DNA of 64,000 nucleotides from Eledone cirrhosa (Eukaryota): NCBI GenBank assembly GCA_964016885.1, contig OZ024745.1, positions 74,834,001 to 74,898,000 of the forward strand. The letters are read 5' to 3'. This document shows positions 9,583 through 54,893 of the stretch, piece by piece. Positions within the stretch are counted from its first letter, which is position 1. Every line of letters starts with the position of its first letter. A program made the translations under genes and the position numbers. The notes under the pieces are model-generated. The model was not told the DNA's origin. It saw only the letters and a list, made by a program, of their open reading frames with translations, and ran no database searches.

Positions 9583-12500
9583 GTGCCCCCCCCAAAAAAA
9601 AGAACTTTCATTGGTTGATTATCTAATGATGCAAGTAGGTCTAAGCGAAGGCATCTCACCAAAGATGTAAATGCGACTGCGATCAGGCTATCATAGAATG
9701 CTGTGCAGACAGCAGTTGCAAGAGCGGAGGAGGATGACAGTCGGGGTGAACTTCGACGGAACAAAGATGCTGCCGTGACTGCTGCTGCTCGCACTCGAGA
9801 GGATGAAGGACGACGCGCCGTTCGACGAAGCAGGGACGCCGCTGCCACCAACATGTAATGAGATTGCTGCATTTATTTGTGGGGAACAGTACAACAAGAG
9901 AGATATCATTCTAAAGCACCGAGACAGCGTATCAATGAGACACACAGGTCCTACGATGCACTCCAGTATCCATTGCTATTTGTCAACGGCGAGGATGGAT
10001 ACCATTTTGGCATTCCTCAACATTCAGCAGGCAATGGTGAGGCACATCTTAGCAAAACTGTCACCTGCATGGATTTCTACGCTTTCCGATTTATGGTAAG
10101 GGACAATTCCTTCAACCATCTACACCGTTCTCGGGACCTTTTCCAACAAATTGCTGTTGATATGGCCGTTAAAATGGAATCCGAGAGATTATGGTTCATT
10201 AAATTAAATCAAAAGAAACTTCGATTTGAATGCAACATTCATCTACGCGATGGAATTCACAACGACATATCCCCAGACAATTTAGGGCAAGTGTGTATTT
10301 TGCCTTCAATGTTGACAGGGGCACCCTGATACATGCACGAGAGGACTCAGGACGCCATGACTTATGTACGACATTATGAGCGACCTTTTCATAACGTTTA
10401 CATGCAATCCCAAGTGGAAGGAGATTACAAAAGAACTATTCCACGGTCAAGCACCAAGACACAGGCATGATCTCATAGCAAGAGTGTTTCGCCTGAAATT
10501 ATCCAAATTAATGGATTTATTAAAGAAAGGACAGGTTTTTGGGCCTGCCAGGTGTGACATGTACACGGTTGAATGGCAGAAACAAGGGCTTGATTTGGTT
10601 GGTTACAAAAATCAGTTCAAACTACATCGACAAATTCATTTCTGCCAAACTACCTGATCCATCGATTGACAAGGACCTCTTCTCTATAGTCACATGAAAC
10701 ATGGTCCATGGTCCTTGCGGACATGGACTCAATATGAAGTCCCCGTGTATACACGACAGAAAGTGTACAAAACGATATCCCAGGCCGTTTTTACAGGAAA
10801 CACAGACTGGCGGTGATGGATATCCGTTGTATAGGCACAGGAGACCTGAAGACGGTGGGTTCACAGCAAAAGTTGGTGAACGCGAAATCGACAACAGCGG
10901 GATAGTCCCATATTGCTCCCTCCTCTTGACAGCGTTCAACGCCCATATAAACATCGAATTTTGCAACTCAGTAAAATCAATTAAATACGTTTGTAAGTAT
11001 GTAAACAAGGGATCGGATGCTGCCGTTTTTGGTCTTCATCATGAAAACAGAAGAGATGAGGTATCTGACTACGAAGCAGGCTGATACATTAGTAGCAATG
11101 AAGCCTTTTGGTGCATTTTGGCTTCCCACTGCACCAACGACACCCCGTCATTAAACAACTTGCCATTCACCTTGAAAACAGTCAACAGATGTATTTCAAC
11201 AGAGTGGCTTCAATGGGCGGAGATGTCTTGGAGAAATATGGGCTTCCACAAACACTTCGAGATGCACCATCTGACATTCCCAACGACATTACACGTGAAA
11301 CGTCATATGATGTCGAGGAACTCAAAAGGAATATTGTAGAAAATGAACCAAAACTTCTAATGGATCAAAAGCAAGCCTACAATATTGTCGTTGATTCCAT
11401 CCGTAATCAGGAAGGGGGTATATTCTTCCTGGACGCACGGGCAGAACATTTGTAATCAAACTTTTACTCGCTGCAGTGAGGCAACATGGAAACATTGCAT
11501 TGGCCGTGGCTTCTTCCGGCATTGCAGCAACTTTGCTGCCTGGTGGAAGGACGGCCTATTCTGCCTTCAGTTTTCCTCTCAACGTGGCATCATCTGAGAT
11601 ACCCATGTGCAACATCAGCAAGTCTTCCGGAAAAGCACTGGTGTTAAAGCGCTGCCTATTAATTGTTTGGAACGAATGCACAATGGCCAACAAGGCGGCT
11701 TTCGAGGCATTAGACCAATCACTCACAGACATCAGGGACTGTCAAGAACCAATGGGAGGTGTCACTTTCCTGTTATCTGGGGACTTCCGACAGACTCTGC
11801 CTGTAATCCCAAAAGGTATGTGGGCTGATGAGGTTGGTACATGCCTTAAGGCTTCCCCACTTTGGCGTTATGTAAGAAAGCTGACGCTTACAACAAATAT
11901 GAGAGCACAACTGCAAGGTGATGAGACATCAGCGGGTTTTGCTGCTGCCATTTTGTCGTTGGGAGATGGTAAAGTCCCACTCAATGGAGATGGTGCAGCG
12001 GACCTCACAGGGATTTTGCAGATGCGTTAAGTTACAGACGTCTGTTTTTCCTAATCTTGAGGAGAACTACATAAATCAAGAGTGGTTGTGTGAATGCGCA
12101 ATATTGGCTTCGAAAAACCACATAGTTGGAAACATTATGTTGTGCTTGCCTGACAACCTGCACGTTTACAAGTCCCTTGATTCTATGGCTGATCCAGACA
12201 AAGTTGTTAATTACCCCACAGAATTTCTTAACTCCCTAGACCCTCCCGGATTGCCATCACACTTACTGCGACTTAAGAAAGGTGCCCCTGTCATGCTCCT
12301 CAGGAATTTGGAACCCCGAAGGCTTTCCAACGGCACGCGTCTGGTCGTCCAAAAGGCGATGCCTCATGTTATTGAGGCAACAATACTTACAGGATGGAGT
12401 AAGGTGGACACTGTCTTCATACCAAGGATACCTCTCATTCCATCCGGGAAAGACATGCAGAAGGCTTGCACATTCAGAAGGCTGCAATTCCCTCTCCGGC

Positions 12501-12689
12501 TCAGTTTCGCCATGTCGATTAACAAATCACAGGGTCAGACGCTGACAGTCGTAGGGCTTAATTTAGAAGAACCGTGCTTCTCCCATAATCAACTATATGT
12601 TGGCTGCTCTCGAGTGGGGAGCCGACATAACCTATTTGCTTTTGTAACTCGCTAGAAAACCCAAAATATAGTCTAAAGGAAGTTTTGTA
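9583..12689 (+). pseudogene. Helitron RepHel (HUH Rep + PIF1 helicase) pseudogene
   Basis: Fragments across frames: SYDALQYPLLF, DLFITFTCNPKW, YTVEWQKQGL, MVHGPCG, KYVCKYVNKG, VASSGIAATLLPGGRTA, SGDFRQTLPV, QFPLRLSFAMSINKSQGQT, QLYVGCSRV. Many stops, frameshifts and deletions, including loss of HUH and Walker A residues. Confidence 0.93.
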
Positions 12690-15199: not shown

Positions 15200-15437
15200 A
15201 TGAATGTTAAAATGTCTATTAGAAGTTTGTTGTTATTTAAGAGATCATTCCGAGCTGGTCACCTCTGTATAACACCGTGTTGCCAGAATAGAACACAGCT
15301 GTCTACCAAGACGCAGAATACGCTTGATTTACGGGGTATATTCCCTCCTATAACGACACCTTTCAATGCCGACGAGACCATAGCTTTCGACAAACTTGAG
15401 AAGAATTTATCATTATGGAAGGACATACCATTCAAAG
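15200..15437 (+). CDS. HOGA1: 4-hydroxy-2-oxoglutarate aldolase, mitochondrial, exon 1
   Basis: Basic transit-peptide-like N-terminus then LDLRGIFPPITTPF (DHDPS/HOGA motif); donor G|gttcgc. Start could also be the ATG at 15212. Confidence 0.9.
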
Positions 15438-15689
15438 GTTCGCCGGTGTTTATTTAATTTATTTTGTTTCGCTAGTTGTTTCTGTTATTACTGTTCCTTA
15501 GAAGTCTTTATTATTTTTTTTATAGAGCATGTGTTTTATTCACAGTCGTATAAATAACATTACAAATTGTTTATAATTTTTACAGAATGAAAATATGAAC
15601 ACAAATATAAGCACATATAATAAATACAATTAATTATTGCTAAGAACCTCACAAATATGTATGATTAAAGCGAAAGAAAAACAAACAAA

Positions 15690-15945
15690 CAAAAACAACC
15701 GTCAATTCACCACCAAGAGCAACAATCGACCGCTCACCACAAACACAAGGGTCAACGGAAATTTTTTAGGCAAGCCAACACGCTCGCAGCATTACCACAG
15801 GTGATGGCGAGGCTAAGGTGCTGAAACAACCAACCACCCTCACGGGCATCACCTGACAACTCGGTAAACGAGCCGCCAACGATGACAAGAACTTCGCTGT
15901 CAGCAGCCCAGCTCCACCAAACGTCTCGAACACCACAAGCTGGAA
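15690..15945 (-). mobile_element. 3' fragment of a REL-endonuclease non-LTR retrotransposon (CRE-like)
   Basis: Minus strand reads GDAREGGWLFQHLSLAITCGNAASVLAC, homologous to the 16263-16720 fragment. Confidence 0.65.
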
Positions 15946-16170
15946 AAAATAGTTATTTGATGTGTGTGTTATTTTTTTAAATATTCATCTCGTGGAGACT
16001 GCTGAAAACTTCAACACCAGACTATTATATATATATATTCTAATATACATATTTCAAGGATACCATGTTAAATTATGGTATGCTTTTATCAGACAAAATA
16101 CAATATATACCAGTTTTATAAATAAATATTGACATACCCTTTCAAAATGCAACCGTTACTTTTGAAGTAA

Positions 16171-16216
<46 letters not shown>

Positions 16217-16262
16217 CAAAGTGAAAGCAAGCCCTATATTCTGAAATCACCTTAGAACCATC

Positions 16263-16720
16263 TGGGTTGTCCAGAAGTGACGGCAAAAGACCTGACGGCC
16301 TTACCCTGTGCCCCTGGTCGAGAGGCAGGTGCCTTGTCTGGGACGTCACTGTTAGGGACTCTTTTGTGCTTTCCCACATCAAGACGAGAGCCACAGCTTC
16401 CGCAGCCGAGCGGAGTAAGACCCTCAAATACTCTGATCTGTCGGCCAGCTACATTTTTCAGCCTGTAGGAAAGTCGGGCTGCTGACTGCGAGGTTCTTCT
16501 CTAATAGAGGTAACTGGCGAATCTCGCGAGGGCGCTTGGTTGTTCCAGCGAATTAGCCTAGTAAATCACTCGAGGCAACGCTGCGAGTGTGCTAGCTTGC
16601 CTCAAAAATCATTAAAGAGATTGCCCTGTACCCCTCGCTGCTGTCTTTTGCTCTGGTGTTGGCTCGATTGTTCATCCGTTCCTTTACATTTTCTTTAATA
16701 TTGTAACATTAAAATAATAT
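16263..16720 (+). mobile_element. 3' fragment of a REL-endonuclease non-LTR retrotransposon (CRE-like)
   Basis: RSDGKRPDGLTLCPWSRGRCLVWDVTV (PD-(D/E)xK-like motif) followed by WLFQRISL..RGNAASV. Other decayed copies at ~14086-14340 and ~37690-38400. Confidence 0.75.
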
Positions 16721-16906
16721 ATCTTCCTGAAAGAATCGCGAGCAATTTATAATGTTATCTAAGCATTTGTAATGTTATTTATGTATATACATATACACTT
16801 TATGCATAAACTAATATGCGACCTTTCATATTATGGTTTTAAGTTTTATATAAAACATTTATTATATAGTTTATTTGCAGTTTTCTCATAAATTTTAGTC
16901 CAAATT

Positions 16907-17287
16907 TACCAAACTATATATCAAACAAGTGTGTATGGTGATGTGGGTTGTTAGAAACCCATCAGAACAAAGGCACTTGTTAAGCAACATGTAACCAGCG
17001 ACTATCAAGCAGACACTTAGAAATTCTGGCATAAAACCATTGAGAGTTAAGCACCCTTTAATTCTCGTGATAGCAGGTCTCTAGAAAAAGGTTACTTCCG
17101 TCTGAGATATCATGCTTTCGGCTTCTCTCTTAGCTTAAATAATTGTTTCTACTTTTGGCACAAGGCCAGCTTGTACTCAGTGTATTACTGGTACTTTATT
17201 TTATCGACCCCGTAAGGAGGAAAGGCAAAGTTAACCTCGGCGGGATTTGAACTCAGAATGGCAAGGGCCGTAAAGAGTCGTTTTGAT

Positions 17288-17321
<34 letters not shown>

Positions 17322-17377
17322 TACCGTAAACTCTTGGTAGATTTATCTACATATATATATATAGTCGTTTTGATGAC

Positions 17378-17409
<32 letters not shown>

Positions 17410-17858
17410 AGTGGTTACACAACAGTTAGTTCACCATACCGAGAACACTTCTACCTAACTCGTCCCTTGGACTGAGTGCTCTACCACCACGGATATTACC
17501 TTCCAGTGTTCCACCACTATATATATATATATATGCTTATCTTGAACTTTCCCTCTTTCCCTGCGTTAAATCATTATTATTATTATTATTATTTTTAATG
17601 TAATTAAGTAAAAAAGATATTATTAACATTGAATAAATAATATTGTTATTTTATTGAATTATATTGATTCGGTAGTTTCGTTTTCATATTCATAATTATA
17701 TTTTTTATTATTTAATTTTTTTAATTTTTTTTTTACATTATTTAATATTATAATGCTTGATAGTCGCTGGTTACATGTTGTTTAACAAGTGCCTTTGTTC
17801 TAATTGATTTCTAACAACCCTCCTCACCACACACACTTGTTTGATATATAGTTTGGTG
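16907..17858. mobile_element. non-autonomous TIR element with 104-bp terminal inverted repeats
   Basis: 16908-17011 is the approximate reverse complement of 17754-17857. Candidate 3-bp TSD ATT. Interior holds a SINE and (TA)n tracts. Confidence 0.7.
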
Positions 17859-18432
17859 ATTTCAGAGTATAGGGTTCGCTTCCACTTTGTCAATATTATC
17901 CTCATCATCATCATTTAGCATCCAGTTTTCTATGTAGGCATGGGTTGGACGGGTCGTCATGACCAAGTGACTATTTAATCGAAGTTTCTGTCCTCCCAGG
18001 CAGATTGGGGGCACGTTTCGCCGACACATGTTCCGATTTCTACAACTAAATGCCCTTTCTATCACCAACCACTTTACCGATGGTATTGGGTGCATTTTAT
18101 CTTTGCACCAGCACCAGGGAGGTTGTCATGTCCTTGAATGCACAACCTCAAGTTGACCCAAGTTTTGTGAGTATAATTGAGCAGACGGAAACTATATGGT
18201 AACTAATAAAATGCATACATGAAATTCGAAGGTGTAGCCTACATTATGGCTAGACGTGTTTCGATAATACTCAATCACTTTGAATACTAATTCAAATTGT
18301 CTTTTAAGTAGTGACCCTGTCACAGCTACATCAGGATAAGGATGGTTGACGCATTATTTCATTTTTGTTACACTTCGTCTCCACTCAAGCCCAGATGTGG
18401 TATGGAAGACTTATAGATTTGGTAAACAGAAC

Positions 18433-18564
18433 TGTAGTGACCTACATTCCGCGGGCTCACATACATTCTCTGTGCGTGATTTGGCTCAGCTCAGCCAATC
18501 AGCGCCAGTAGAAGAGGATGTATCCCTACGCGTCCTGAGGGAGAAATTACCCGCGAAGATTTGA
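18433..18564 (+). repeat. truncated 5' LTR (132 bp)
   Basis: Starts TGTAGTG, contains a CCAAT box, and is identical to 19871-20002. Confidence 0.85.
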
Positions 18565-18572
18565 TCTTAAAG

Positions 18573-19786
18573 TCAGGAATTCCTCATGAGTTCCAGCAGT
18601 CCTGGGTACGCCTCTGTTCGCTGGGCTTCTGATATAGCCTCGTTGAAGGCTTGGCCTAGGGTTCCCGATCTAACCTTGGTCAACTGATTCTTTCTGAATG
18701 TCGATATGAAGCTGGACGGATTTGGGTACTGATCCAAAAGCTGGATCATCAGTCCAGCTATCATGTATCCTGCATGTTTAGTATCTGCCACAGCCGCCTC
18801 TTCTGCCAATGCTTCATCTGGAACAAAGTGGTGCTTGTATGATTTGGACTGGAAGGCGACTCTGAAAGCAAGTGCATCCATGAGTGCACCTTCCACATGT
18901 CCCGGCTCTATGTTCTTAGAATAAATAAACCGTTTGTCTTTGTCTAAACATCCTATCATACCGAAAAAAGTGTGCAAGTACGGGTTCGATCCTGCAGAAA
19001 ATACACATTTGTTGATTAGTCCCAGGGACTTTTGGTAAGGGAAAATCCCTGTATCTGATGCTCCCGCACTTAAGGATTTTAGCACTCTCATGGTCTCATT
19101 AACTCCTGCGTCATTGACCACCAAACAAACCAGATCTGTTATGGTTAGGTTGAGTGTTTCTCTGAAGTGATCAAGGACCTCTATGATATGCATCCCTTCA
19201 TATCTCGCCAATATGGTCCCCCTTCTCAGCAGCGACAGATCATGTATGTTATAACTGTAAAGGAAATAATCTATCGCTGCCATTACTTGAAATATCTGAT
19301 CGTTCCTGACTATATGGCTCAGGGCACCGTTGAGGAGCATGTCCTGGTCGTATCTGTATGGGTGCGTCATGCGATGATTATTGAAGGCCTTGATTATGTT
19401 TTGCTTATAATCCCCCACCTCCAGAACGGTGCCCGCATTCTCCACCTTGTAAAGGGTGACTATATACAGCATTAGCCCGTGGAGGTTGTTGCGGTTGGTG
19501 TGGGGAAGCTGGCATCTTCGGTGATGTTGAAGAAGTCAGCAGGGGTAACTGACTCTTTCTGTCTGATAAAGTCATAGTTTTGGAGATCAGTATTTATATC
19601 AAATTTGAGGTAGGACTGGCAGTATTTGATCATAAAATAGAGTATATGTTTCGGGAGGATCTCTTGTGTGTTGGCTTTTGTCAGAATGAAATCATGTGCT
19701 GCCTTGACATCCCCTCCAGAGAAAATGATTATCTGTTGGGGCTGGAACACCTCATTTTTTTTTCTTGCATGCATCCTTCTGCTCAA
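18573..19786 (-). pseudogene. endogenous viral element: rhabdovirus-like nucleoprotein (N), frameshifted at ~19472
   Basis: Intronless ORFs of 104 aa and 299 aa, colinear with vesiculovirus N motifs: LYIVTLYKV~LYLLGLYRV; MAAIDYFL..HDLSLLRRGTILARYEG~VAAVDMFF..HECASFRYGTIVSRFKD; FPYQKSLGLINKCVFSAGSNPYLH~MPYLIDFGLSSKSPYSSVKNPAFH; RSGTLGQ~REKTIGK. Confidence 0.88.
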
Positions 19787-19858
19787 TTATTTTTTAAACT
19801 GATGTGCTCTTTCAGCATTTTTTCTTGCTGATTCAATAATCTATATCGACTACCATCT

Positions 19859-19867
19859 AGGAGGGGG
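19859..19867 (+). promoter_or_regulatory. polypurine tract (plus-strand primer site)
   Basis: AGGAGGGGG ends 3 nt before the TG of the right LTR. Confidence 0.75.
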
Positions 19868-19870
19868 TAT

Positions 19871-20235
19871 TGTAGTGACCTACATTCCGCGGGCTCACAT
19901 ACATTCTCTGTGCGTGATTTGGCTCAGCTCAGCCAATCAGCGCCAGTAGAAGAGGATGTATCCCTACGCGTCCTGAGGGAGAAATTACCCGCGAAGATTT
20001 GAAGAATCTCTCTCTCGAACCAGCAACACGTACAACATATGAAGTGAGATTTTGCACCTTAGCCTGCCGGCTTTCCGGCGCAATGGCACATTCCCTTTTG
20101 TAACCTCATTTTTATGTGTAACTTCAACCATACAAGTTAACCAACATTATTTGTGCTACAACAAAAATAAACATACATTTCATCTCTAATTTCTGCTGTT
20201 GACATCATTATTATGTTACTCGTGTCTCAATAACA
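19871..20235 (+). repeat. full-length 3' LTR (~365 bp)
   Basis: TGTAGTGA...TCAATAACA imperfect inverted termini, CCAAT box, AATAAA at 20166-20171, preceded by a PPT. Confidence 0.75.
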
Positions 20236-21268
20236 TTTATAAACTATGCTGCCAAAGAACGTTATTGGTAAAGGCGTTTATCCCGATGTTAAGGTAACTG
20301 AAATAATCATAGCTTAAAATGCTCATAACGTGACTAAATGTATAAACATATGGTATACATAATACCAAATACATAAACATGGTATTATTCTGAATCACGT
20401 TGCCTTAGTGATTATTATTTCAGATACATTTCAAAAAGAACTATGGAAAATGGAGACAATAAGAAATAAAATACCATAGATAAGGTCAGCATCTGGGTAT
20501 TTAGTGCCCTAGGCTAGCTAGCCCTTCAATGTGCACTCTTTTCTCCTAAATAAAATTTCAACTTAAAATTTGCCAAGGCAAGAAACATAGCTCTTAACAC
20601 TGCTTGCTCTGATCACACTAAGAAAATTACCAAGCCTGCATTTTGCACTACAGAGTCTAAACTCACATATGCCAGATCATGTGATGGGTCATAATACAAT
20701 ATGACTCTCTCCATGACTCTTTTGCTATGCAGCAAAAATGTTTAGTGATTTATTTATTGATTGTAGAAAATTATTTTTTATTAAAGTTAATTTGGTGGGA
20801 AGTGAACAGACCTACCTTGCGTCTCCACTTGAACCCAGACTGAATGTCCCTACACCAACATCCACGTGACTTACATCCAGCCAAGAATTACAATCATAAC
20901 TCATCCTCATCAGGCTACGATCTGACAAAAAAGAGACAGTGACAGGCACCCAAACCCTGATGTGACCTCACTGGTCCCTCGCTTCCAACAAGACCTCCCC
21001 CACTCCTTTTCGACAGCCCCACAGTTAATTATACAAATTTGTTTAAAACTGTGAGCCTTTTAAGATTCAATAATGCACTCTATGCAACTTCTTAGCCTTA
21101 ATTGTAGCACTAGACCTGACCACAGAACTAACCAACTATTAACAATAGCCACTTAGTTCATCTTTTTCTGAATCACAATGACATACATGATCTGGTGCTT
21201 ATCTACACCTTTCATAGTATTAAGCAGATGAGAGAGAAATGTTCTCCTATGAAAGATTATATATATAT

Positions 21269-21595
21269 GGAGGCACATGGCTTAGTGGTTAGAGCATTGG
21301 CCTTGCAATCGAAAGGTTGTGAGTTCAATTCTCAGACCAGGTGATGTGTTGTTTCCTTGAGCAAGAGACTTTATTTCACATTGCTCCAGTTTACTCAGCT
21401 GTAGAAATGAGATGATAGGGACTGCAAAGTGGTCGTGGAGGTGCCACGGCAAAAAAGCACCCAGCACTCACTGTAAATGAGGTTGGTGTTAGGAAGGGCA
21501 TCCAGCTGTAGAAATCAAGCCAAAATCAGTTCCCGTCCCACCCTTGCAAGCAGGGAAAAAGCGAACGTAAAAATGAAATGATGATGATGATGATG
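21269..21595 (+). mobile_element. tRNA-derived SINE with RTE-like tail
   Basis: A-box TGGCTTAGTGG, B-box GAGTTCAATTC, core, RTE-like tail and (GAT)n end; follows a (TA)n tract. Confidence 0.85.
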
Positions 21596-21599
21596 TCTG

Positions 21600-22145
21600 T
21601 GTGTGTTATGGAAGATGAAAATAAAATTAAATAGGGAGGAATATGTTAAGATTGATGGCGAAAAAAAAATACTGTTGAAACAAAATAAAAACTGCCATCA
21701 AATTAAAGCACAACTGGTCTGATATTGTTTTTTAGGACCACACATTAAAAACATGCTTTGTTATAGAAGTCAGCTGCTCACTTGATGTTAGTGAGGTAAG
21801 AAAAATGCAAGAGAAGGAGGATATTTACAGATCATTTATAAGGAGTTTTCAGATCCAGTATCCAAGATACACATTCAGCTTTATACCTGTTATTACTGGA
21901 GCTACAGGTTATATACCAACCCACCTGGACCAAAGTATAATTGAACTTGGATTTGTGGAGGAAGAACGTACCTCTTTAATTCATAAGCTACAAATGGCTG
22001 TGCATCTGGAACCTTCAAAATCTATAAAACATTCTTCTTACGCAAGAGACAATGACAATTTCCTTTTCTTTACAACCTTGCCGCCGGAAAGGTTGCCAGT
22101 CAAATATTAGTATGAACTCAAAATTAAGAAAAAGAGAAAACATAC
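21600..22145 (+). mobile_element. 3' remnant of a REL-type non-LTR retrotransposon (R4/NeSL-like)
   Basis: IEVSC...KEDIY...FIPVITGATGYIP resembles the C-terminal REL endonuclease region; ends in a (CATA)n-like tract. Confidence 0.55.
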
Positions 22146-22202
22146 ATACAAACATACAAACACACAAACACACATTAAGATTTTTTATTTTTTTCTCAAC
22201 AG

Positions 22203-22334
22203 GTTACACTCTGATGGGCTCAAATGGAGAATATGTCCTTCTAAGTCTAGAAGAACGATTGGATATTGTACAGAAAGTGATCAGTTTTACAAAAGATGAC
22301 AACAAAATCATAATGGTTGGCACTGGTTGTGAAT
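22203..22334 (+). CDS. HOGA1: HOGA1 exon 2
   Basis: AG/GT boundaries in phase. Encodes GYTLMGSNGEYVLLSLEERLDIV...IMVGTGCE. Confidence 0.95.
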
Positions 22335-22443
22335 GTAAGAGTTTCATTTCATTTTTCTTGTATAGTGGCATGTTGAAACCACTTGTCTGTTGAGCTGTAT
22401 CCTCTTTCTATCTCTTCTGCTATGATATTCCCTGTTCCTCTAT

Positions 22444-22756
22444 ACTCTTGGGTCCCAAATAATCGGGATCGGTAATTTTCCTAGGTTGTCTCCGCTGATT
22501 TTTTAAAAACCAGAATTAGTCGTTTAGTTTACATATTGAGACCCTAACTCATCCTATTTATTTTATAACATGGGATTTCTAGTAATGTACTTTTTTTGTC
22601 ATGTATAATGTTTTTTAATGTCTAAAAGAAATTGTCGCTGGAATGCTACCACTTAAAATAAAATTTCACCCAAGTTAGATTTAATAAGCGGGGTGAGGAT
22701 GAGGGGATCTGGAAAATTAATAAGCGGGAGGGGACCATTATTCGAGACCCGAGAGT
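22444..22756. mobile_element. TA-flanked MITE (Tc1/mariner-type)
   Basis: TA|CTCTTGGGTCCCAAATAA...TTATTCGAGACCCGAGAG|TA. Related copies at ~24852-25214 (opposite orientation), ~46773, ~55932-56212 and ~59281. Confidence 0.75.
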
Positions 22757-25333
22757 ACATGCAGGTTGTATATGACCACTACCAGCACGTAATACCACCT
22801 TGTCTCACTTTTCATCCCATCCATATCACACCTCCTCTTCTTGTCACCTTTACTGTGTCTGAAGCTACGGGAATAAATTGCATCTTTGATGTAAATTTTT
22901 TGTAAACTTATATCATGTTTAACAAGATCTGCTTAAAAACAGCAACCTCACAGAGACTTATCACCCTATTATTCAAGTGGAAAAACATATTTTACAATAG
23001 TTAGTCTTTTGTAACAATAATCTTATCAAAATATAACAGATCTTATATAGCCCCTATATTTATTATATATTTTATACTGTAAACGTGGTTGGTGTTAGGA
23101 AGGGCATCCAGCCGTAGAAAACCCGCCAGACAGTCCTATATGAGCAAGACAACCAATCTTGCCTCACGTGGGACAATTCCCGTCTAAACCCATGCTAGCA
23201 TGGAAGATAGACATTAAACAATGATGATGATGATGATTTTATCAGTTGCCTACCTTTGAGACAAATGACATTCATTCATGCTAATTCCCAAATAAGAAAT
23301 ATTGCCTATATATCAAATACCATTTGTAAATTATTGTTATCTATGTGTATGCACTATCTTGATGTTTAAAATAGATATTTTTTAAACAGTAAACATTTCT
23401 GAAAATGTGTTCTCATGTAAATGAACCTCCTTCATTTTTTGCCCTTAATTTTATTTCAAAATGTCTTGTATTCTATATGAGAAAATATGCTACATACTTA
23501 CATAACCACCCAGTAACCTTCTTCAGATTTACTTAAATCCTTTGTTAACATATTTCTAATAAAAGACACTGATTGTAGTTTTCAAATAATTTTGAAAATA
23601 ATCAAGAGCTTAGAGAGATTTAATAATATAACTAACTCTCATTTTTAAATTGGAATTTATAACACAACTTAAAAGTTCTCAGATAAAATTATGATTGAAG
23701 ATTTTTAGATAAATATAAATATTCTAAAATAAGCAGTTTTGTATCACAGAACTAGGTGCAATTGCATGTGGTTTGGTATCAAAAGAGTTAACTGAGTGTT
23801 TTGGAACACAATTTAACAAAAGTTTCTTACATAGAATTATGAAGGAAGGGTGAAATTTAAATACAAACATTTTAAAAAGAAGTTTTGTATATTCTTTTAA
23901 AACAGTAGTTTGTTGTTTGTGGAAGAATTTGGCTGCTATTTCTAATAGGTTCAGTGACTACATAGAGGTGTCTTTGTCAGATCATGCATTGTAGTACTTC
24001 TGTTAATAAATATTTCACAAGTGAAATATTTAGATGATATATAAGGTGAGTCATTTTTTGACAATTCTGTTTAAATACCTTAACTAATATTTCAACTGAT
24101 AACATGTGCCAAGGTAATTAATAACCTAGAAAATATATTTCAATGTAATATGTGTAGACATGAGTAGAAATGTAATTGCTAGATTAATTCTGGTCTGCAT
24201 ATTCAGGACTGACAATCAAGTTATTATATAAAACAACAGTAGAGTGGAAAATGCAGGCTAGAGTTTTATTTAAATTACATATCTTCTTTCAAACTAGTTC
24301 AAACTGCAGAGTGTGAGAAGTAGAGAGAAAGAGGGGTAGAAAGCAAGAGAGAACCACATATAATTTATTTTAAAGGTGTCCTAGTAGTATTATATTTTAA
24401 CTAAATATTAAAATTTACATAGATGGAAGATAACCTATATTAGTTTAATATAAGGATCAGTAACCTTTTTGTAATGACTTATTTCCTTTTTTTAGTTTTG
24501 CCCATGGTCCACATATATATATCATGTCATACATAAAAAGAAATGAAAAGATCTGAAGGCCACAGAGAACACCTCAGTGGTCCATATCATATCCCGTATC
24601 ATATGATATTGATAGAATCTATAAAGTGTCCAATAGAATGCATTACAATGCTCTTTACATTAAAATTCCACAGAGGTCAACTTTGACTTTTGGAGTTAAT
24701 AAAGAAAATACCAGCCCTGTTTTACTCTAGTTGAAACATGTTTGATGTTCTGTTGGGTCAATGATGGAAGGATTGAAAGGGTTTTTGTGTGTCTGCCTGC
24801 AACCACATATGCACCTGTAGCCATTCGTAAAAGCATTCTTGATTGTTGATGTACTCACACATCTAAATAATCGCCCCACCCCTCACTTATTAATTTTTCA
24901 GATCCACCCCCCCACACTCGCTTATTAAATTTTGCTAATCTATCTCTCACAAAATTTTATTTTAAGTGGTAACATTCCTGCAACAATTAATTTTTTTTAG
25001 ACATTAAAAGCATTATGCATGACCAAAAACGTACATTACTAGAAATCCCATTTGTTATAAAATAAATAGCATGAGTTGGGTCTCAATATATAAACTAAAC
25101 AACTAATTCTGGTTTTTAAAAAAATCAACGGAGACAACCCAGAAAGGTTACCGATTTTCCAACTCACCCACTTATTCCTACCCCCACCCCTTTGTTATTT
25201 GCGACCCAAGAGTAGTGTAGTAGTAGTTTAGTCATGCTGTGTATGTTGACTTTTCCTACACTGATCTTCCATACTGTCCTACATTATATGAAAATAGTTT
25301 ACTGAGGCAACTATATATGTTATAAACTTTCAG

Positions 25334-25461
25334 CAACACAAACAACCATTAAGTTCACCAACCAAATGGCATCAGCTGGTGCCAACACTGCACTAATTGT
25401 GACGCCAAGTTATTATAAAGGAGCTATGTCAAATACTGCTTTATTACATCATTATAGAAAG
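25334..25461 (+). CDS. HOGA1: HOGA1 exon 3
   Basis: In phase. Encodes STQTTIKFTNQMASAGANTALIVTPSYYKG...HHYRK. Confidence 0.95.
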
Positions 25462-26164
25462 GTAAGATTTGCAGAAAATTCTTCATTCATTCATTCATTT
25501 CTTCTTCTTCTTCTTCTTTTTCTTCTTTTTCTTTTTCTTCTTTTTCTTTTTCTTTTTTTTTCTTTTTCTTCTTTTTTCTTTTTTCTTCTTCTTCTTCTTC
25601 TTCTTCTTCTTCTCCAACACTAGGGAGCTTGTCATCTTGACTGTCATATAAACCCCACTCATCTCTGTATTGTCATATAACCTCCACTCATCTATATATT
25701 GACATATAAATATACATTTCTATCAATTTCAAAATTTTCATTTATTGTTTGGATAACTTTGTAGATCTCACATTAATTATATTAAGTATCGAGAAAAGCA
25801 CCCAGCTTACATTGTAAAGTGGTTGTGTAGGTGTCATGACAAAAATTGCCCATCCCACATTGTAAAGTGGTTGTGTAGGTGCCACAACAAAAAGCACCCA
25901 GTCTACACTGTAAAGTGGTCATGTAGATGTCATGACAAAAAGGACCCAGTCCACACAGTAAATGTGGTTGACATTAGAAAGGGCATCCAGCCATAGAGAC
26001 TAAGCCACAACCAATTCTGTATAAGCAAGACAGTCACCTGATCTAACTTGTCTCACAACGGGACAACCTGTCTAAGTCATGCTAGTATGGAAAAATGGAT
26101 GTTAAACAGTGATGATGATGATGATCTTGTATTCTAAATTGATTCAGTCTTTCTCTGCTTACAG

Positions 26165-26299
26165 GTTGCTGATCACAGTTTAATTCCAATTCTTCTCTAC
26201 AGTGTTCCTTCCAACACAAATATTGATTTAGCTGCAAATGTGATAATAGAGTTGGCTGATCATCCAAATATCATTGGTCTTAAAGATAGTGGAGGAAAT
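26165..26299 (+). CDS. HOGA1: HOGA1 exon 4
   Basis: VADHSLIPILLYSVPSNT...HPNIIGLKDSGGN, containing the catalytic Tyr and Schiff-base Lys. Confidence 0.96.
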
Positions 26300-27760
26300 G
26301 TAAGTATTTTATTGACAAACACTAACTTTATTGATCTCTGAAACAATACAGTCACACATTGTTGTATTAACATCTTATTAAACAGCCATTATCAGTCACC
26401 CTCTAATCTTCTAGTGAATACTCATAACACTAGAAGCTTTTGATAAACATATCTATAGAGTTCTAGGTTTTGGAAGAGTATATGATAAAATGACTTGCAG
26501 TATTTCTTCTGGCTCTTTGTACTCATAGAACAAACCCTGCTGAGGTCAACATTCCTTTTTGATCATAGGTCTACACAGAGAGGCTATGTGGGACCCTTGA
26601 TGTGAAATAGCAGTAGCACATAAAAATAAAATACCTGTATAGAAACTGCTTCAAAGTAAGCAGAAGATCAGAAAATGTTGACTTTGTCTATCAGGACATT
26701 GTGTATAACACCCAGAAGTGGAAATATCAAAACTGGTTGTGTGGGATCCACAGCACATTGTAAGAAAGGTTATATCACATACATTGACAAACTGAAGCAA
26801 GATATTAACCAGGAGTCTATCTAAGAACTGAAGTTGGTAATGATAGACAAAGAAATGTGGTAAATGTCATTTCACATATGAAAACAACCAGAAGCAGCAT
26901 ACTGGCCAGGAATCTCTTCAGGAACTGAAGATGGTAATGATGGATAGATCAGTTTGGTAGATGTCATTTCATATATATAAACAAACTGAAACTGGATACA
27001 GGCCAGGAATCTATTCAGGAACTGAAGATGACAGTTATGAACAATAAAGCATGGAAAAGGGACATTGTTGCTTTGGCTTGGACAGCAGCATGGCCCAACT
27101 AACTATGATCTACTCAATCAGGGCTATTCTGGAGCTAAATAAAAACGCCATTCTGTTACTGGTTTCAATCATTAGACTGTAGCCATGCTGGATCACCACA
27201 TTCAAAGGATTTAGTTGATTAAATTGACCCTAACATTTATTGTTTCCATGTCTATTTGTGATGGTGTGTAGCTTAGTGGTTAAAGAGTTGGATTTACATT
27301 CTTGAAGTTGTGAGTTCGATTCCCAGGTCAGGCAATGTGTTATGTCCTTGAGCAAGACACTTTATTTCGCCTTGCTCTTTCTACCAGGAATTGCAACTGG
27401 TAGATAGTATTAGCAATTGGAAAAACCAAACGAAACATTGTTTCCTTTGTCTGATTGAAGGAGTTCCACCCCACTCAGTTAGCGAATGAGGTCTGGGATC
27501 TTGTTTATTTGGATCTTCTTCTATTTGTCAAACTGCTAAGTTGCAGGACATAAATAATCAGTAAATGTGAATGCTGATGCAGACACACATCATCATCATT
27601 TATCATGTTTCTCTGCTAGAAAAAGTTGGAGGGGTCATCAACAGATTGATTCAGTACTTAAGCAAAGCTATTAACCCCTTAGATGGGCCAAGGGCATGCA
27701 TAACTAATTCATCAATCGATACAGAAGTCATTTGCTTTGTTTTTTTGTTTTTTTTCTCAG

Positions 27761-27857
27761 ATTGCCAAATTAAGCAACATTATATTTGCCACAAAAGATA
27801 AAGATTTTCAAGTTTTAGCAGGATCTGCAAGTTTTTTATATCCAGCATTAATGGCAG
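27761..27857 (+). CDS. HOGA1: HOGA1 exon 5
   Basis: IAKLSNIIFATKDKDFQVLAGSASFLYPALMA with canonical splice sites. Confidence 0.95.
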
Positions 27858-28833
27858 GTATGTGCATCTAATTTCTACTTCAAAACAGATTTTAATTCCA
27901 TAGAACTGGGATAAGCTGCAACATGATAAGCCTCTAGGCATGAAACAGACTTTAACTGTTTAATTACAAACAATTATAGCTTTAAAGAGTGATTTATGGT
28001 AGTTCTTAAACATAACTTATCTTACCCTTTTTAAAGGTTATTAATGGTACATATTGGTTATGATGTGCTCATGATGATAAGTTTATCAGTTCAATTCCTA
28101 TACACATTGTGTTGTTAAGCAAGGCACTTCATCCCATGTTGTTCCAGTTCACTCAGCTGTAAACAAATACCCGCAAAAGTAGCAGATAGTGGGGTGGGGG
28201 TGTTAGTGCTGCAATGACTGGCATCTTCTACTCTCAGTCACTTAACCTTTTCATTACCAAACTACCTGAAACCACCCTTCATCCGCTATACAAAACTGTT
28301 TATTTTAACTTTGAAAATGTATGAGTCCCAAATATAGAACATAAACTGTAATAATAGTTGAGAAAATTGGGTAAATTACACCGAGAGATGGAAAAAGTGA
28401 ACAGAGGCCCCTCTTCCCACTTTCATCCTTCTGTAAATGTAATTTACCCAATTTTCTCAACTACTAACTATAGTGGTCTATTGTTATTGCAGTTTTTACT
28501 GCATTTGGGACTCACATTTTCAAATTATAAACACATCCAGCACTTCAATAATGCATATGGTTTATTTTAAATAAATAACCTTCCATCTTACTTTTATGTA
28601 AGAAACTTTGGTAAATTATACTCCAAACACCAACTTAATATATATATAACTAAATACCTTCAAAGCTTTAATTATTTTCAAAATTACTTGAAAATCATAG
28701 GCTATGTCTTTTATTAGAAATATGAAAACAAAAGTGTTAAAGCCCCATAAAACTAGGACAAGCTTCAGCCTTTGTCTAATCTACATACGAACAGATGTAA
28801 AAAACAATGAATTTTTCTCTCTCTCTTTTAAAG

Positions 28834-28967
28834 GTTGTGTCGGAGGAGTATGTGCTTTGGCTAATGTCTTAGGAAAGGATATCTGTCATTTACAAGCACT
28901 GTATAAAATGGGTTCACACAGCTCGGCCATAGCACTACAGATGAGATTGGTGGCACCAAACAATGCG
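28834..28967 (+). CDS. HOGA1: HOGA1 exon 6
   Basis: GCVGGVCALANVLG...ALQMRLVAPNNA with canonical splice sites. Confidence 0.95.
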
Positions 28968-30615
28968 GTTAGTCCTTTGCTTTAAATTCACCTTGCTCTG
29001 TTTGGTATTTTATTGAAAGATATGATTTATAACATTGGCACAAATCCTTACAGATTTTAACAGAAGGGTCAGTTGATTTAATTGATCCTGAGTTGGCAGA
29101 GTTATAAGAACGTCAAATAGAATGCCTTGCATTATTTGTTACATCTCTCTGCACTCTGATTTAAAATCCTGCCATGGTCAACTTTGTTTTTCATCCTTTC
29201 AGAGTTGATAAATAAAATGCCAGTTGATGGTGGTGGATTGGATGAGATGCTTTGCAGTATCTGTTCATTGTGTTCTGAGTTTAAATTCTACCTAGGGATT
29301 AAAATCCTACTGATGACCAAGGCTGATCCCTCGACCACGGTAACAACTGATTTTATGAAAGCTACAATGGATAGAGGAGGATTGTGGGTGTCCTCAACTA
29401 AAGTCGCATGAGGATTAATTAATGGTTAAATGGCAATGTGGCATCTAGGTGAAATTTCCCTTAACCTTAAGAAATATGGTGGTTGGCAGAATCAGTCAAT
29501 CCAGCAACCATTTTCTCTGCTAAAGCAGGGGTTAGCCTTATGGGCCCCATGAGAAGCTTCTCCATTTTGCCCTATCATATTCATCCCCGCTCACCAACCT
29601 CTTGTCTTTCATTTCCTTTTTCATCATCCTTAGACATTGTTTTTCTTGGTCTTCCTCCTTCTACTTCCTTCCACATTCATTTTCATCCTCCTTCAACACA
29701 TTCCCCAACTATCATGGTCAAAATACCTTGTATTATTTACTTATGTTCCCTTTATATTCTGAGTTGAAATTTTGCTAAGGCTTATTAACTTTGCTTTTCT
29801 CTGAGAGTTGATAAAATAAGTAGCAGATGGTTGTATAGTGAAGAAGTTTATTTCACAACCATGTGGTTCTGGGTTTGATCCACTGCACAACATTCTCAGC
29901 AAGTGTCTTCTAACATAACATTGAGAAGAAGAATTTCGTAGACAGAAACTACAGAAATCTATCATTTTATGTTCACTTTCCATGTGGACATGGATTGGAC
30001 AACAATTTAATTGAAATATGTGTGGCTATGTATTTAGCTGATGTATATCAGCAAAGAATATAAACATTGGCAACATACCAAAAAAATATTTCATTATGAA
30101 CAAAATCCCTTGAGCTATTTGTTTGGTATCAAGTTCAACACTTTCTTGTTAATCTCACCATTTTAGATACTGCAAACCAGAGATTAGCCTCTAGGAAACC
30201 TATAACCAGTAATTCTATTGTTCACCAATTGTTGTCTAAAATAAAAATAAATAAATACTAACATCAATTTACTTGATCACACTCCAAAAGATTAAAAGAA
30301 CTTTGCAGTTACATCAAAAACATGACAGCCTCCCCAGAGCTGGTACCACAATAATATGCATGCAGTACACTGTAAAAAGGTTGGTGTTAGGAAGGGCATC
30401 CAGCTCAAAAATAGAATGTATGCAAGTGGGGTATGATTCTGTTTTTTTAGGTGAACAGTAGCTCCAATTAAGTACTTGCATGGCCTGTAACAACTGTCTA
30501 ACCCATTCCAACATGGAAAAACTGACATTAAATGATGAGGATGATGAATTGTGATGATGAATTGTGATGATGATAATCTCAATTTTTGTTATCATTTTTT
30601 CTTATATATTTTCAG

Positions 30616-30768
30616 GTTACAGCCAAATATGGTATAGCTGGACTAAAAGCTGCTATGGATTGGTTTGGTTTCTATGGTGGCCAGCCTCGATCACCTCTGC
30701 AACCTCTCACAAAAGAGCAAGCACTGAAAATGAAGGAAGATTTTTTCTCAAGGGGTTTTATACAATAA
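30616..30768 (+). CDS. HOGA1: HOGA1 exon 7 (last coding exon)
   Basis: VTAKYGIAGLKAAMDWFGFYGGQPRSPLQPL...FIQ*. Confidence 0.96.
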   Translation, partial: VTAKYGIAGLKAAMDWFGFYGGQPRSPLQPLTKEQALKMKEDFFSRGFIQ

Positions 30769-38599: not shown

Positions 38600-41500
38600 A
38601 TATTTATATGTTGAGCAACATTACATTTATATGTTGAGTAACATTACATTTATATGTTGAGTAACATTACATTTATATGTTGAACAACATTATATTGATA
38701 TGTTGAGTAACATTATATTGATATGTTGAGTAACATTATATTGATATGTTGAGCAACATTACATTTATATGTTGAGTAACATTACATTTATATGTTGAAC
38801 AACATTATATTGATATGTTGAGTAACATTATATTTATATGTTGAGTAACATTATATTGATATGTTGAGCAACATTACATTTATATGTTGAGTAACATTAC
38901 ATTTATATGTTGAACAACATTATATTGATATGTTGAGTAACATTATATTGATATGTTGAGTAACATTATATTGATATGTTGAGCAACATTACATTTATAT
39001 GTTGAGTAACATTACATTTATATGTTGAACAACATTACATTGATATGTTGAACAACATTATATTGATATGTTGAGTAACATTATATTGATATGTTGAGTA
39101 ACATTATATTGATATGTTGAGTAACATTATATTGATATGTTGAGTAACATTATATTGATATGTTGAGTAACATTATATTGATATGTTGAGTAACATTATA
39201 TTGATATGTTGAGTAACATTATATTTATATGTTGTGTAACATTATATTGATATGTTGTGTAACATTATATTGATATGATGAGTAACATTATATTGATATG
39301 TTGTGTAACATTATATTGATATGTTGAGTAACATTATATTGATATGTTGTGTAACATTATATTGATATGATGAGTAACATTATATTGATATGATGAGTAA
39401 CATTATATTGATATGTTGAGTAACATTATATTGATATGTTGAGTAACATTATATTGATATGTTGAACAAAATTATATTGATATGTTGAGTAACATTATAT
39501 TGATATGTTGAGTAACATTATATTGATATGTTGAACAACATTATATTGATATGATGAGTAACATTATATTGATATGTTGAGTAACATTATATTGATATGT
39601 TGAACAACATTATATTGATATGTTGAGCAACATTATATTGATATGATGAGTAACATTATATTGATATGTTGAACAACATTATATTGATATGTTGTGCAAC
39701 ATTATATTGATATGTTGAGTAACATTATATTGATATGATGAGTAACATTATATTGATATGTTGAGTAACATTATATTGATATGTTGAACAACATTATATT
39801 GATATGATGAGTAACATTATATTGATATGATGAGTAACATTATATTGATATGTTGAACAACATTATATTGATATGATGAGTAACATTATATTGATATGTT
39901 GAACAACATTATATTGATATGTTGAGCAACATTATATTGATATGTTGAGTAACATTATATTGATATGATGAGTAACATTATATTGATATGTTGAGTAACA
40001 TTATATTGATATGTTGAACAACATTATATTGATATGATGAGTAACATTATATTGATATGTTGAGTAACATTATATTGATATGATGAGTAACATTATATTG
40101 ATATGTTGAACAACATTATATTGATATGTTGAACAACATTATATTGATATGTTGAACAACATTATATTGATATGATGAGTAACATTATATTGATATGTTG
40201 AGTAACATTATATTGATATGATGAGTAACATTATATTGATATGTTGAACAACATTATATTGATATGATGAGTAACATTATATTGATATGTTGAACAACAT
40301 TATATTGATATGATGAGTAACATTATATTGATATGTTGAGTAACATTATATTGATATGATGAGTAACATTATATTGATATGTTGAACAACATTATATTGA
40401 TATGATGAGTAACATTATATTGATATGTTGAACAACATTATATTGATATGATGAGTAACATTATATTGATATGTTGAGTAACATTATATTGATATGATGA
40501 GTAACATTATATTGATATGTTGAACAACATTATATTGATATGATGAGTAACATTATATTGATATGTTGAACAACATTATATTGATATGATGAGTAACATT
40601 ATATTGATATGATGAGTAACATTATATTGATATGATGAGTAACATTATATTGATATGATGAGTAACATTATATTGATATGTTGAACAACATTATATTGAT
40701 ATGTTGAGCAACATTATATTGATATGTTGAACAACATTATATTGATATGTTGAACAACATTATATTGATATGATGAGTAACATTATATTGATATGTTGAG
40801 TAACATTATATTGATATGATGAGTAACATTATATTGATATGTTGAACAACATTATATTGATATGTTGAACAACATTATATTGATATGTTGAACAACATTA
40901 TATTGATATGTTGAGTAACATTATATTGATATGTTGAACAACATTATATTGATATGTTGAACAACATTATATTGATATGTTGAGCAACATTATATTGATA
41001 TGTTGAGCAACATTATATTGATATGATGAGTAACATTATATTGATATGTTGAACAACATTATATTGATATGTTGAGCAACATTATATTGATATGATGAGT
41101 AACATTATATTGATATGTTGAACAACATTATATTGATATGTTGAGCAACATTATATTGATATGTTGAACAACATTATATTGATATGATGAGTAACATTAT
41201 ATTGATATGTTGAACAACATTATATTGATATGTTAAGTAACATTATATTGATATGTTGAATAACATTATATTGATATGTTGAGCAACATTATATTGATAT
41301 GTTGAGTAACATTATATTGATATGTTGAATAACATTATATTGATATGTTGAGCAACATTATATTGATATGTTGAGCAACATTATATTGATATGATGAGTA
41401 ACATTATATTGATATGTTGAGTAACATTATATTGATATGTTGAGTAACATTATATTGATATGATGAGTAACATTATATTGATATGTTGAACAACATTATA

Positions 41501-41691
41501 TTGATATGATGAGTAACATTATATTGATATGTTGAGTAACATTATATTGATATGATGAGTAACATTATATTGATATGTTGAACAACATTATATTGATATG
41601 TTGAACAACATTATATTGATATGATGAGTAACATTATATTGATATGATGAGTAACATTATATTGATATGTTGAGTAACATTATATTGATAT
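38600..41691. repeat. 23-bp minisatellite, ~3.1 kb (~134 units)
   Basis: Unit TTATATTGATATGTTGAGTAACA with variants; array resumes at 45301-45406 and ~45874-45951. Confidence 0.97.
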
Positions 41692-42253
41692 AATAATGAA
41701 AATATTGTGTACAGTGCTCAGGTGCACTACAAATCATCAAAAGTGTATGTATAGTACATAGGGTAATGTACAAACGTCAAGAAAATGAACAGTGCACGAG
41801 TCATGATATACATGTGTGCATGTGTATGGAAGGGGGACAATAGGGGTAGTTTTGGCGAATTTCGGGAAGCATGAGGGTTTTAAAGGATGCAGCGTCTTGG
41901 CAGCTAACAACTGACGCAGGCAGTTTGTTCCATGCTTCAGCAACTCTAAGCGTGAAAAAATGTTTCCGAAAGTAATGTGAGCTGTGCTGTTTTCTGACTT
42001 TGTTGGCATGTCCAAGTGTGTTAGACACATGGAGATCAAAAAGGTGCTCAGGGTTGTTGTTGGCGAGATGGTTAATAACTTTGTGGGTGTTTACCAAGTC
42101 CATTGCCAGACGTCGGAGCTTCAATGAATCCATGCCCAGGGAAGCAAGGCATTCAGAGTATGGTAGGTGTCTGATGGAGGGTATGCGCTTGGTTACACGT
42201 CTCTGAACAGTTTCCAGGAGGTCAATGTTCTGAGCAAGATAGGGGTTCCAGAC

Positions 42254-49429: not shown

Positions 49430-49492
<63 letters not shown>

Positions 49493-49687
49493 GTCATCGT
49501 CATCGTCATCATCAGAAGACTCTCCTTGCAAATATAAAACTTTGTGTTTAACACGCTTCTTTTTTAATTTCACTAACAAGTTAGAGTTGTTACACAACTG
49601 TGCAATCTGACACTGCCCATTTGGATAATCATTCATTAGGTACGTTTTATCACATTGCTGCACTTCTAGCTTGGCTCTTTCTTTTGC
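48443..49687 (-). CDS. FAM193A: FAM193-family protein, large low-complexity exon
   Basis: 1245-bp open exon with gtag acceptor and gtaagt donor; AKERAKLEVQQC..., poly-D and poly-Q/H tracts. Confidence 0.88.
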
Positions 49688-49901
49688 CTACAAATAAAAA
49701 GAAAAACATCAATCTTAATAATCATCATAACCATTTTACCACTGATTCTAGTGTCACTTCCATCATGCTCTCATCTCTCCTCCCACTCCCATCACTGAGA
49801 TATCAGTAATTCATCCGTTTACCTTCATAATCATTCTCAGCCATCTGCGATATATTTTTTCTTTCACAATGATTGTTATTGAGTAAAAAATCTAATACAG
49901 A

Positions 49902-50174: not shown

Positions 50175-50347
50175 GTAAATCTGGAAAAGCTTAAAATATA
50201 TACGTTTAAATTTGGTTGTTCATCACTGGTAGGATTGGTCATTCTGCAATGTTAATCATGACGTAATATGAGAAAAGCACTTAACATTATGCAACTCATC
50301 CATCTTTGATGTTGAATCATGCTGATGGTGGCGGGAACGGAGTTAAA

Positions 50348-50577: not shown

Positions 50578-50622
<45 letters not shown>

Positions 50623-50772: not shown

Positions 50773-50813
<41 letters not shown>

Positions 50814-54371: not shown

Positions 54372-54893
<522 letters not shown>

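Follow-up and report, generated by a model that had tools for sequence, protein, structure and literature searches.

We identified an endogenous rhabdovirus-like nucleoprotein (N) gene in the 64,000-nucleotide stretch of the Eledone cirrhosa genome analysed here, which we refer to as the window, and found that it is the cargo of an LTR-retrotransposon insertion (18433-20256) that the earlier note had missed. Very probably, an octopod rhabdovirus left this sequence behind as a fossil in the germline, through recombination with an LTR retrotransposon. What can be read directly from the DNA is the structure of the insertion, its target-site duplications (TSDs) and junctions, the repetition of the arrangement elsewhere in the genome, and the pattern of selection between the copies. 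The more informative part of the findings is the capture by an LTR element, together with the record of several copies and variants, neither of which the earlier note had recognized.

A rhabdovirus N gene in two reading frames

Both open reading frames previously proposed to represent N, of 299 and 104 amino acids, were present on the minus strand in the ORF listing (Table 1). The long frame matched the Pfam profile PF00945 (Rhabdo_ncap) with an E-value of 3.2e-18 and a score of 66 bits, compared to a curated cut-off of 26 bits, which confirms the proposed identity, and VSV N matched the same frame with an E-value of 4e-8. The sister copy on contig C4 obtained a score of 81 bits to profile positions 36 to 344. 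The colinearity of the motifs with VSV N could also be verified, with LYIVTLYKV aligned to LYLLGLYRV in VSV, and GLINKCVFSA to GLSSKSPYSS. The 104 amino acid frame by itself produced no N match in the Pfam search; from about residue 13 it matched sister copies in which the same stretch continues into the core of N, and this N-terminal part was 94% identical at the amino acid level to the C4 copy and 55% to 91% identical to the other copies. The two frames were split by a short frameshifting deletion near position 19480, which was private to the window copy among four close copies.

The viral part of the insert stops at position 19749. The first 12 codons of the 104 amino acid frame belong to the tail of the LTR element, as do the approximately 24 upstream codons, which had been counted as part of N but contain stop codons and are not viral. 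About 90% of N is present, but approximately 38 N-terminal viral codons, as estimated against copies that retain the gene start, are missing, and the upstream codons are retrotransposon DNA. On the minus strand, the element tail (19750-19786) also offers an ATG from which the N-terminal fragment of N could be read in frame, although its use is hypothetical.

A structure model of N with a pLDDT of 88.8 predicted a two-lobed helical fold nearest to the rhabdovirus N proteins of VSV, SVCV, and lyssavirus (rabies). The model was built with 106 homologues, and the input alignment consisted of rhabdovirus N, so that the fold match is not fully independent. The identity of the model to the matched N structures and to models of viral N proteins was 13% to 24%. 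A total of 38 PDB matches were obtained at E ≤ 0.001, all listed ones being rhabdovirus N, and the N proteins of paramyxoviruses and filoviruses matched only at E > 0.04. The window N is similar to the rhabdovirus N profile and structures (PF00945; VSV, SVCV, rabies) in its score above the cut-off, its collinear motifs, and its fold (TM 0.61-0.73 on the query), but it shows only 13% to 26% sequence identity, and the window copy is broken and endogenous. The window frames represent an endogenous rhabdovirus-like N, and the copy is now a decaying pseudogene.

The RNA-binding motif reads K-C-V-F-S in the window N, compared to K-S-P-Y-S in rhabdovirus N. Within the longer G-L-S-x-K-S-P-Y-S motif, the G, L, K, and S residues were retained, while the middle was CVF in all 6 copies that span it, SIF and RIF in 2 relatives, and SPY in 66 of 135 alignment rows. 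Decay as the origin of CVF was ruled out, since the variant is common to the clade, and the odd motif appears from the alignment to be a clade trait.

Table 1. Features of the chimeric insertion and of the surrounding host gene, in window coordinates
Feature	Position	Strand	Evidence
Target-site duplication, left, 4 bp GAAC	18429..18432	+	Same 4 bases after the 3' LTR
Truncated 5' LTR of family A, first 132 nt of an LTR of ~390-400 nt	18433..18564	+	100% repeat; full length from paired copies
Start of viral 3' UTR, with LTR/virus junction in 6-7-nt microhomology	18565..18572	-	Sister copy at C2:55.89 Mb runs on through the UTR
Rhabdovirus N, central and C-terminal part, including stop codon	18573..19481	-	PF00945, VSV N, structure model; frame open from 19535
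Frame of 320 aa stop-to-stop (299 aa from first Met)	18573-19535	-	ORF
Rhabdovirus N, N-terminal part, other frame	19472..19749	-	Amino acid identity to sister copies
Frame of 104 aa	19472-19786	-	ORF
3' internal tail of family A, polypurine tract at 19857-19870	19750..19870	+	91-97% identity to other family A tails
Complete 3' LTR of family A, ending ...GCTGCCAAA as in paired copies	19871..20256	+	LTR alignment
Target-site duplication, right, 4 bp GAAC	20257..20260	+	Matches left copy
HOGA1-like host gene, 7 coding exons found	15212..30765	+	HOGA1 of A. hians and of O. sinensis aligned by tblastn; DHDPS Pfam matches

Anatomy and inheritance of the insertion

The N insert is bracketed by a perfect 132-nt direct repeat, positions 18433-18564 being 100% identical to positions 19871-20002. 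The order of the segments is TSD, LTR nucleotides 1-132, antisense N, a 121-nt tail with a polypurine tract (PPT), the full 3' LTR, and TSD, such that N has replaced the primer-binding site (PBS) and interior of the element. The 5' junction is located 8 nt past the stop codon of N, inside the microhomology of 6 to 7 nt, whereas at most 1 to 2 bases are shared at the 3' junction. The 3' LTR in the window showed 7 to 16 differences over about 380 aligned nt to 8 other copies. Dating of the insertion by the identical 132-nt repeat was dropped, since all 40 of the copies that were scored showed 99% to 100% identity over this stretch.

The insertion is situated in intron 1 (approximately 15438-22201) of a HOGA1-like gene, and N is antisense to the host transcript. 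Exon 1 of this gene matched HOGA1 in PDB, while exon 2 shared 91% identity with HOGA1 of Argonauta hians and of Octopus sinensis, which were the only 2 hits among 5 candidates and agree with the mollusc host inferred in the earlier note. The host chromosomal flanks that identify a non-retroviral endogenous viral element (EVE) were seen in the location in intron 1, in the TSD, and in a contig bridging the 3' LTR and the host flank. This contig belongs to a set, possibly from the sample used for the assembly itself, that contained window-type as well as C4-type sequences. Furthermore, reads with window-type alleles crossed the junction between N and the tail in all 3 RAD runs of another study; these reads stop short of the unique flanks and demonstrate the chimera, not the exact window site. 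No joint of an empty site was seen in these runs, which do not extend over the flanks. The N chimera is inherited and present in several individuals. The earlier inference that the lineage had reached the host germline is supported.

Several other features were observed in the window. A Helitron-like remnant with PIF1 helicase domains (9862-12655) was located just upstream of the HOGA1-like gene. A 23-nt satellite in 134 copies (38600-41691) and a 22/47-nt minisatellite (53345-54098) both underlie spikes in GC skew. On the minus strand, LINE-like reverse transcriptase (RT) frames were recognized by eye at 41804-45355, followed by long frames of a probable host gene at 48386-57450, one of which had a weak Utp14 match below the cut-off.

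The LTR families

The element that carries the window N belongs to a family that we refer to as family A. A search for the start of its LTR yielded 1676 first-look candidates in the 3.0-Gb assembly, and 40 of the 40 that were scored were 99% to 100% identical. Based on 10 paired elements analysed from 20 fetched loci, the family A element is about 2.3 kb in size and consists of an internal part of about 1.5 kb with a PBS and a PPT, flanked by LTRs of about 390 to 400 nt; the 5 copies in which both ends were resolved contained a 4-bp TSD. No Gypsy protein matches were found inside the family A elements, which have no similarity to the proteins of a second family, here called family B, and we found no autonomous partner for them. 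Family A is a non-autonomous, non-coding LTR element. Its classification as a TRIM was ruled out, since TRIMs are described as shorter than 1000 bp (PMC10886601). The relatives of family B contained gag with a CHCC motif and protease-like, RT, RNase H, and integrase sequences.

TSDs of 4 bp were identified at the window, at the C4 copy, and at 2 family B loci. The PBSs of both families were complementary to host tRNA-Trp genes, while the window chimera itself has no PBS. ARAGORN predicted no tRNA in the first 5 of 5 loci with the pattern, and 9 tRNA-Trp genes in 2 further loci; these genes are arranged in tandem clusters at C4:277.41-277.44 Mb and 353.39-353.49 Mb. A tRNA-Trp PBS, a 4-bp TSD, and a CHCC Gag are given as features of the CsRn1 clade of Ty3/gypsy elements (PMC2582038), with which families A and B share the PBS and the TSD, and family B also the Gag motif. 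Family A differs from these elements in being non-coding, and as it shows no match to the family B proteins, its membership in a CsRn1-like clade is best described as probable.

Copies and captures elsewhere in the genome

The protein search of the genome for N yielded 16 matches among 19 candidates, corresponding to 9 loci, which are spread over 4 chromosome-scale contigs and a single small one, with one of the loci being a five-unit tandem array. With twins counted once, these loci represent about 7 captures. Both junctions in the C4 copy were identical to those in the window, but its flanks were different and it had a TSD of its own, and we therefore conclude that one capture was inserted twice. 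Between the 2 copies, 31 of 1116 nt of N differed, as did 16 of 615 nt of the element parts, or about 3% in each, and both copies contained private deletions.

A similar arrangement was seen in the copy at C2:55.89 Mb, in which a family B 5' LTR cut at nucleotide 181 is followed by antisense N, a tail, a full 3' LTR, and the TSD CGCT, with the T-run of the family B LTR meeting the A-run of the viral gene end at the junction. The copy at C2:336.02 Mb contained N in sense orientation inside a complete family B element, beginning at the viral gene-start motif and with the TSD AGGC. In total, 5 of the 7 independent captures adjoined family A or B, while the other 2 (C2:47.05 Mb with its twin on C219; C2:46.93 Mb) were placed between direct repeats other than family A or B. 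No family A or B sequence, bar one shared short interspersed piece, was found in a small control of 77 kb of DNA. Four of the 6 oriented captures, 3 of N and 1 of the L gene, were antisense to the element.

The tandem array (C28:117477000-117485000; L042, L043) has a period of 1796 nt, each unit containing a 5' N fragment and family A internal sequence, and is bounded by LTRs from 2 different families. The copies at C2:47050000-47051700 and C219:63800-65800 (L048, L049) contain N and a second ORF in the position of P, separated by a rhabdovirus-type gene junction; they share only a 2.2-kb block (96% identity), and the one on C2 has a 102-nt direct repeat on either side. At C2:46932200-46934750 (L041), an N fragment between direct repeats of about 170 nt is located beside an RT-coding element for which RVT_1 was the only match and which appears Penelope-like. 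The copy at C5:61.19 Mb spans the viral gene start to the gene-end A-run, and a 767-nt inverted repeat (98%) with ORFs is located just upstream of it (L047:5398-7067). Two N-like pieces (C1:314565714-314566028 and C25:7909867-7910073) were more distant and had no family A or B neighbours, the one on C1 resembling the N proteins of other rhabdoviruses more closely than those of this clade.

Selection and divergence between the copies

The comparison of the window copy to the copy at C2:55.89 Mb gave a dS of 0.64 and a dN of 0.027 (dN/dS 0.04), and to the copy at C2:336.02 Mb a dS of 0.29 and a dN of 0.026 (dN/dS 0.09). For the remaining copies, dS was saturated and dN ranged from 0.12 to 0.31. 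These substitution patterns point to strong purifying selection between the captures. The differences between captures arose in replicating viruses, and several variants or species were therefore captured at different times.

Between the window and C4 copies, for which dN/dS was 0.24, 15 of the 31 changes were synonymous (17 of 31 by an alternative count), compared to 9 expected under neutrality (P 0.012) in a simulation that was matched to the mutation spectrum but ignores the CpG context, with 7 of the 20 window-private changes being located at CpG. The synonymous excess is modest, and simple copying does not predict it. The window copy contained 11 private amino acid changes.

The viral lineage

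We searched 1.84 billion representatives with a profile and obtained 257 hits, of which 3 reached 1e-30, after which the E-values dropped to 1e-24 and 1e-16. Ten hits were looked up, and 3 of the top 5 were from Octopus bimaculoides and A. hians. The nearest proteins were A0A0L8FVJ3 in O. bimaculoides and GAB1603531.1 and GAB1610042.1 in A. hians, with 47% to 59% identity, and identity was 25% to 26% or lower for the 3 named viruses among the labelled top hits. A single-sequence search of 5.8 billion proteins with a sister copy as the query gave no match at E ≤ 1e-3 among 2793 candidates, which is weak evidence of absence because octopod relatives found by the profile went undetected in this word-index search. 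The O. bimaculoides and A. hians proteins, which we compared at the protein level only, belong to the same clade and are derived from the host genomes, and they have been annotated automatically (in O. bimaculoides with a rhabdovirus nucleocapsid domain) or as hypothetical. The suggestion of a distinct, possibly undescribed lineage is thus supported in that no described virus is close, although related fragments from these 2 octopods were already public.

In the N tree, the copies and 4 relatives formed a clade of 11 tips with a support of 0.99 and a stem of 0.79. The tree was inferred with FastTree from 135 rows and rooted at the midpoint, with hits shorter than 300 or longer than 600 amino acids omitted unless labelled; the branching inside the clade is unreliable owing to non-overlapping fragments.

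The twin copies at C2:47.05 Mb and on C219, unlike the window copy, have N followed by a junction of an A-run, CT, and AAC, and then by the second ORF. An A-run, a dinucleotide, and an AAC start constitute the gene-junction pattern of VSV. The second ORF had no Pfam match and is P by position only. The continuation from N into this ORF implies that a genome-length or read-through template was needed.

Fragments of L were identified on 3 contigs (7 matches) and were unlinked to N. The core of the largest L fossil was 45% to 52% identical to 120 listed rhabdovirus L hits, and in an L tree that had no outgroup the fossil formed the longest of the 121 terminal branches, with no supported sister (support 0.24). 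We infer a common clade of origin for N and L. This fossil (C3:130160114-130164811; L051, L052, L054, L068) includes RdRp, capping, and methyltransferase domains, several stop codons and frameshifts, and an internal 182-nt duplication, and is antisense beside a Gypsy (family B) gag-pol. An L-like fragment at C27:16990000-16999900 was 57% to 92% identical to it and rearranged, while the L-like fragments at C23:16221471-16222608 and C3:37502164-37502541 did not match the C3 pieces and probably represent other viruses. A search of the genome for the glycoprotein (PF00974), run without a positive control, returned 0 of 6 candidates.

A rhabdovirus has reportedly been detected in cephalopod transcriptomes by Rey-Campos et al. 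in 2023, which may overlap with the octopod lineage described here. Uniorhavirus killamcar and Margarhavirus chemarfal are likewise rhabdoviruses tied to molluscs, and mussel rhabdoviruses have been classified (PMC12282299). The L protein of killamcar was 48% identical to the L fossil, which is no nearer than the vesiculoviruses and sigmaviruses (45% to 52%).

Origin of the chimera and alternative explanations

In the best reading of the data, an octopod rhabdovirus lineage was recorded several times over by copy-choice reverse transcription. The proposed setting is a Gypsy (CsRn1-like) particle, in which the reverse transcriptase would have changed template twice, between RNA or DNA of family A and the RNA of the virus, after which integrase would have inserted the chimeric product. 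The switches may have followed a route to which we give a somewhat better than even chance, in which U3 DNA of the plus strand used the N mRNA as a template, priming immediately after its stop codon, and at a later step rejoined the element at a point upstream of the PPT. A second route, with a chance slightly below even, is that minus-strand synthesis crossed onto genome-sense viral RNA, with strand transfer via the U3 microhomology. Since the chimera has no PBS, its second insertion most likely occurred by trans-mobilization, probably with co-packaged parent RNA and with the repeated U3 piece serving the second-strand transfer.

A hybrid between an LTR retrotransposon and a virus is said to have arisen also in the mouse, involving IAP and LCMV. 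Reverse transcription of LTR elements is well established (PMC10886601), and copy-choice hybrids of viral RNA with LTR elements of the Ty3/gypsy type have been reported in Aedes (PMC6797480). The accounts of Aedes aegypti and of Eledone agree in the copy-choice with Ty3/gypsy elements, with an EVE flanked by LTR and gag in the mosquito, but differ in that the host here is a cephalopod, the site is a gene intron and not a known piRNA cluster, and the product is a half-LTR chimera with a TSD that was inserted twice. Furthermore, the junctions here contain microhomologies, whereas sequence-independent recombination was concluded for Aedes (PMC6797480).

The synonymous excess between the window and C4 copies (dN/dS 0.24, P 0.012 against the spectrum-matched neutral simulation) and the microhomology at the 5' junction would also be expected if close viral variants had been captured twice at the same junctions, or if newer viral RNA had partly overwritten the chimera by homologous template switching. 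We consider either event quite unlikely, since the 3' junction is identical in both copies despite at most 1 to 2 shared bases, the element and viral parts are equally diverged, and the simulation disregards the CpG context that applies to 7 of the 20 window-private changes. It is very unlikely that a LINE or DNA repair placed viral cDNA in a pre-existing LTR element and deleted its PBS and interior, even though the C5:61.19 Mb copy resembles a retrocopy in extending from gene start to gene-end A-run and another N copy adjoins an RT-coding, non-LTR-like element: the window copy has neither a poly(A) nor a duplication at the viral ends, and the unusual half-LTR layout arose in 2 LTR families, as whole units with 4-bp TSDs.

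Rhabdoviruses are common in parasites, and a live cognate virus was not found in the protein collections searched, both of which could indicate a virus of a parasite or symbiont, or contamination, rather than a virus of the octopus. Yet N lies within an octopod gene, in an intron, on a contig of 135 Mb, and is fused to host retrotransposons, the 9 loci are distributed over several contigs, and relatives occur in 2 other octopod genomes, which excludes contamination; the virus of a symbiont would still have needed access to germline cells, and we regard this group of explanations as very improbable. Domestication of the insert as an antiviral element under selection, either as a source of antisense RNA or piRNA or as a dominant-negative N, would be consistent with the antisense orientation of N relative to the LTR as well as to the host pre-mRNA, with the 4 of 6 captures antisense to the element, with the presence of the chimera in further samples, and with the report that antisense piRNAs from EVEs restrict virus in Aedes (PMC6797480). 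We nevertheless judge it unlikely, since the frameshift and the 11 private amino acid changes speak against a protein role, and 4 of 6 is no significant bias. Under the preferred reading, that of a fossil made by LTR-retrotransposon recombination, any present role of the window copy would possibly be as a putative antisense RNA.

Significance

Rhabdovirus EVEs and LTR-mediated capture were already known, the capture route from mosquitoes. A description of a rhabdovirus EVE in an octopus, octopod, or other cephalopod was not found in the literature searched, which excluded most subscription journals and supplements, and the main text of PMC12548735 contains no mention of octopus, cephalopod, or Argonauta. 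A more far-reaching proposal, which we consider rather doubtful as a whole, is that a rhabdovirus clade ranking as a genus or higher has long resided in octopods and reaches their germline, and that tRNA-Trp-primed Gypsy elements record it repeatedly, often in antisense, as PBS-less half-LTR chimeras that are re-mobilized, perhaps updated with newer viral sequence, and supply antisense RNA as a heritable antiviral memory outside arthropods.

The copies provide sequence probes (N, the ORF in the P position, L, and the gene-junction signals) for an octopod rhabdovirus lineage that has no named member in the collections searched, and these allow a search for the live virus and a check of rhabdovirus reads in cephalopod transcriptomes for an endogenous source. 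The germline recombination junctions of retrotransposon-mediated capture are preserved in a lophotrochozoan, including a chimera that was inserted twice. The question of whether EVE-based antiviral memory reaches the molluscs can now be tested with small-RNA data.
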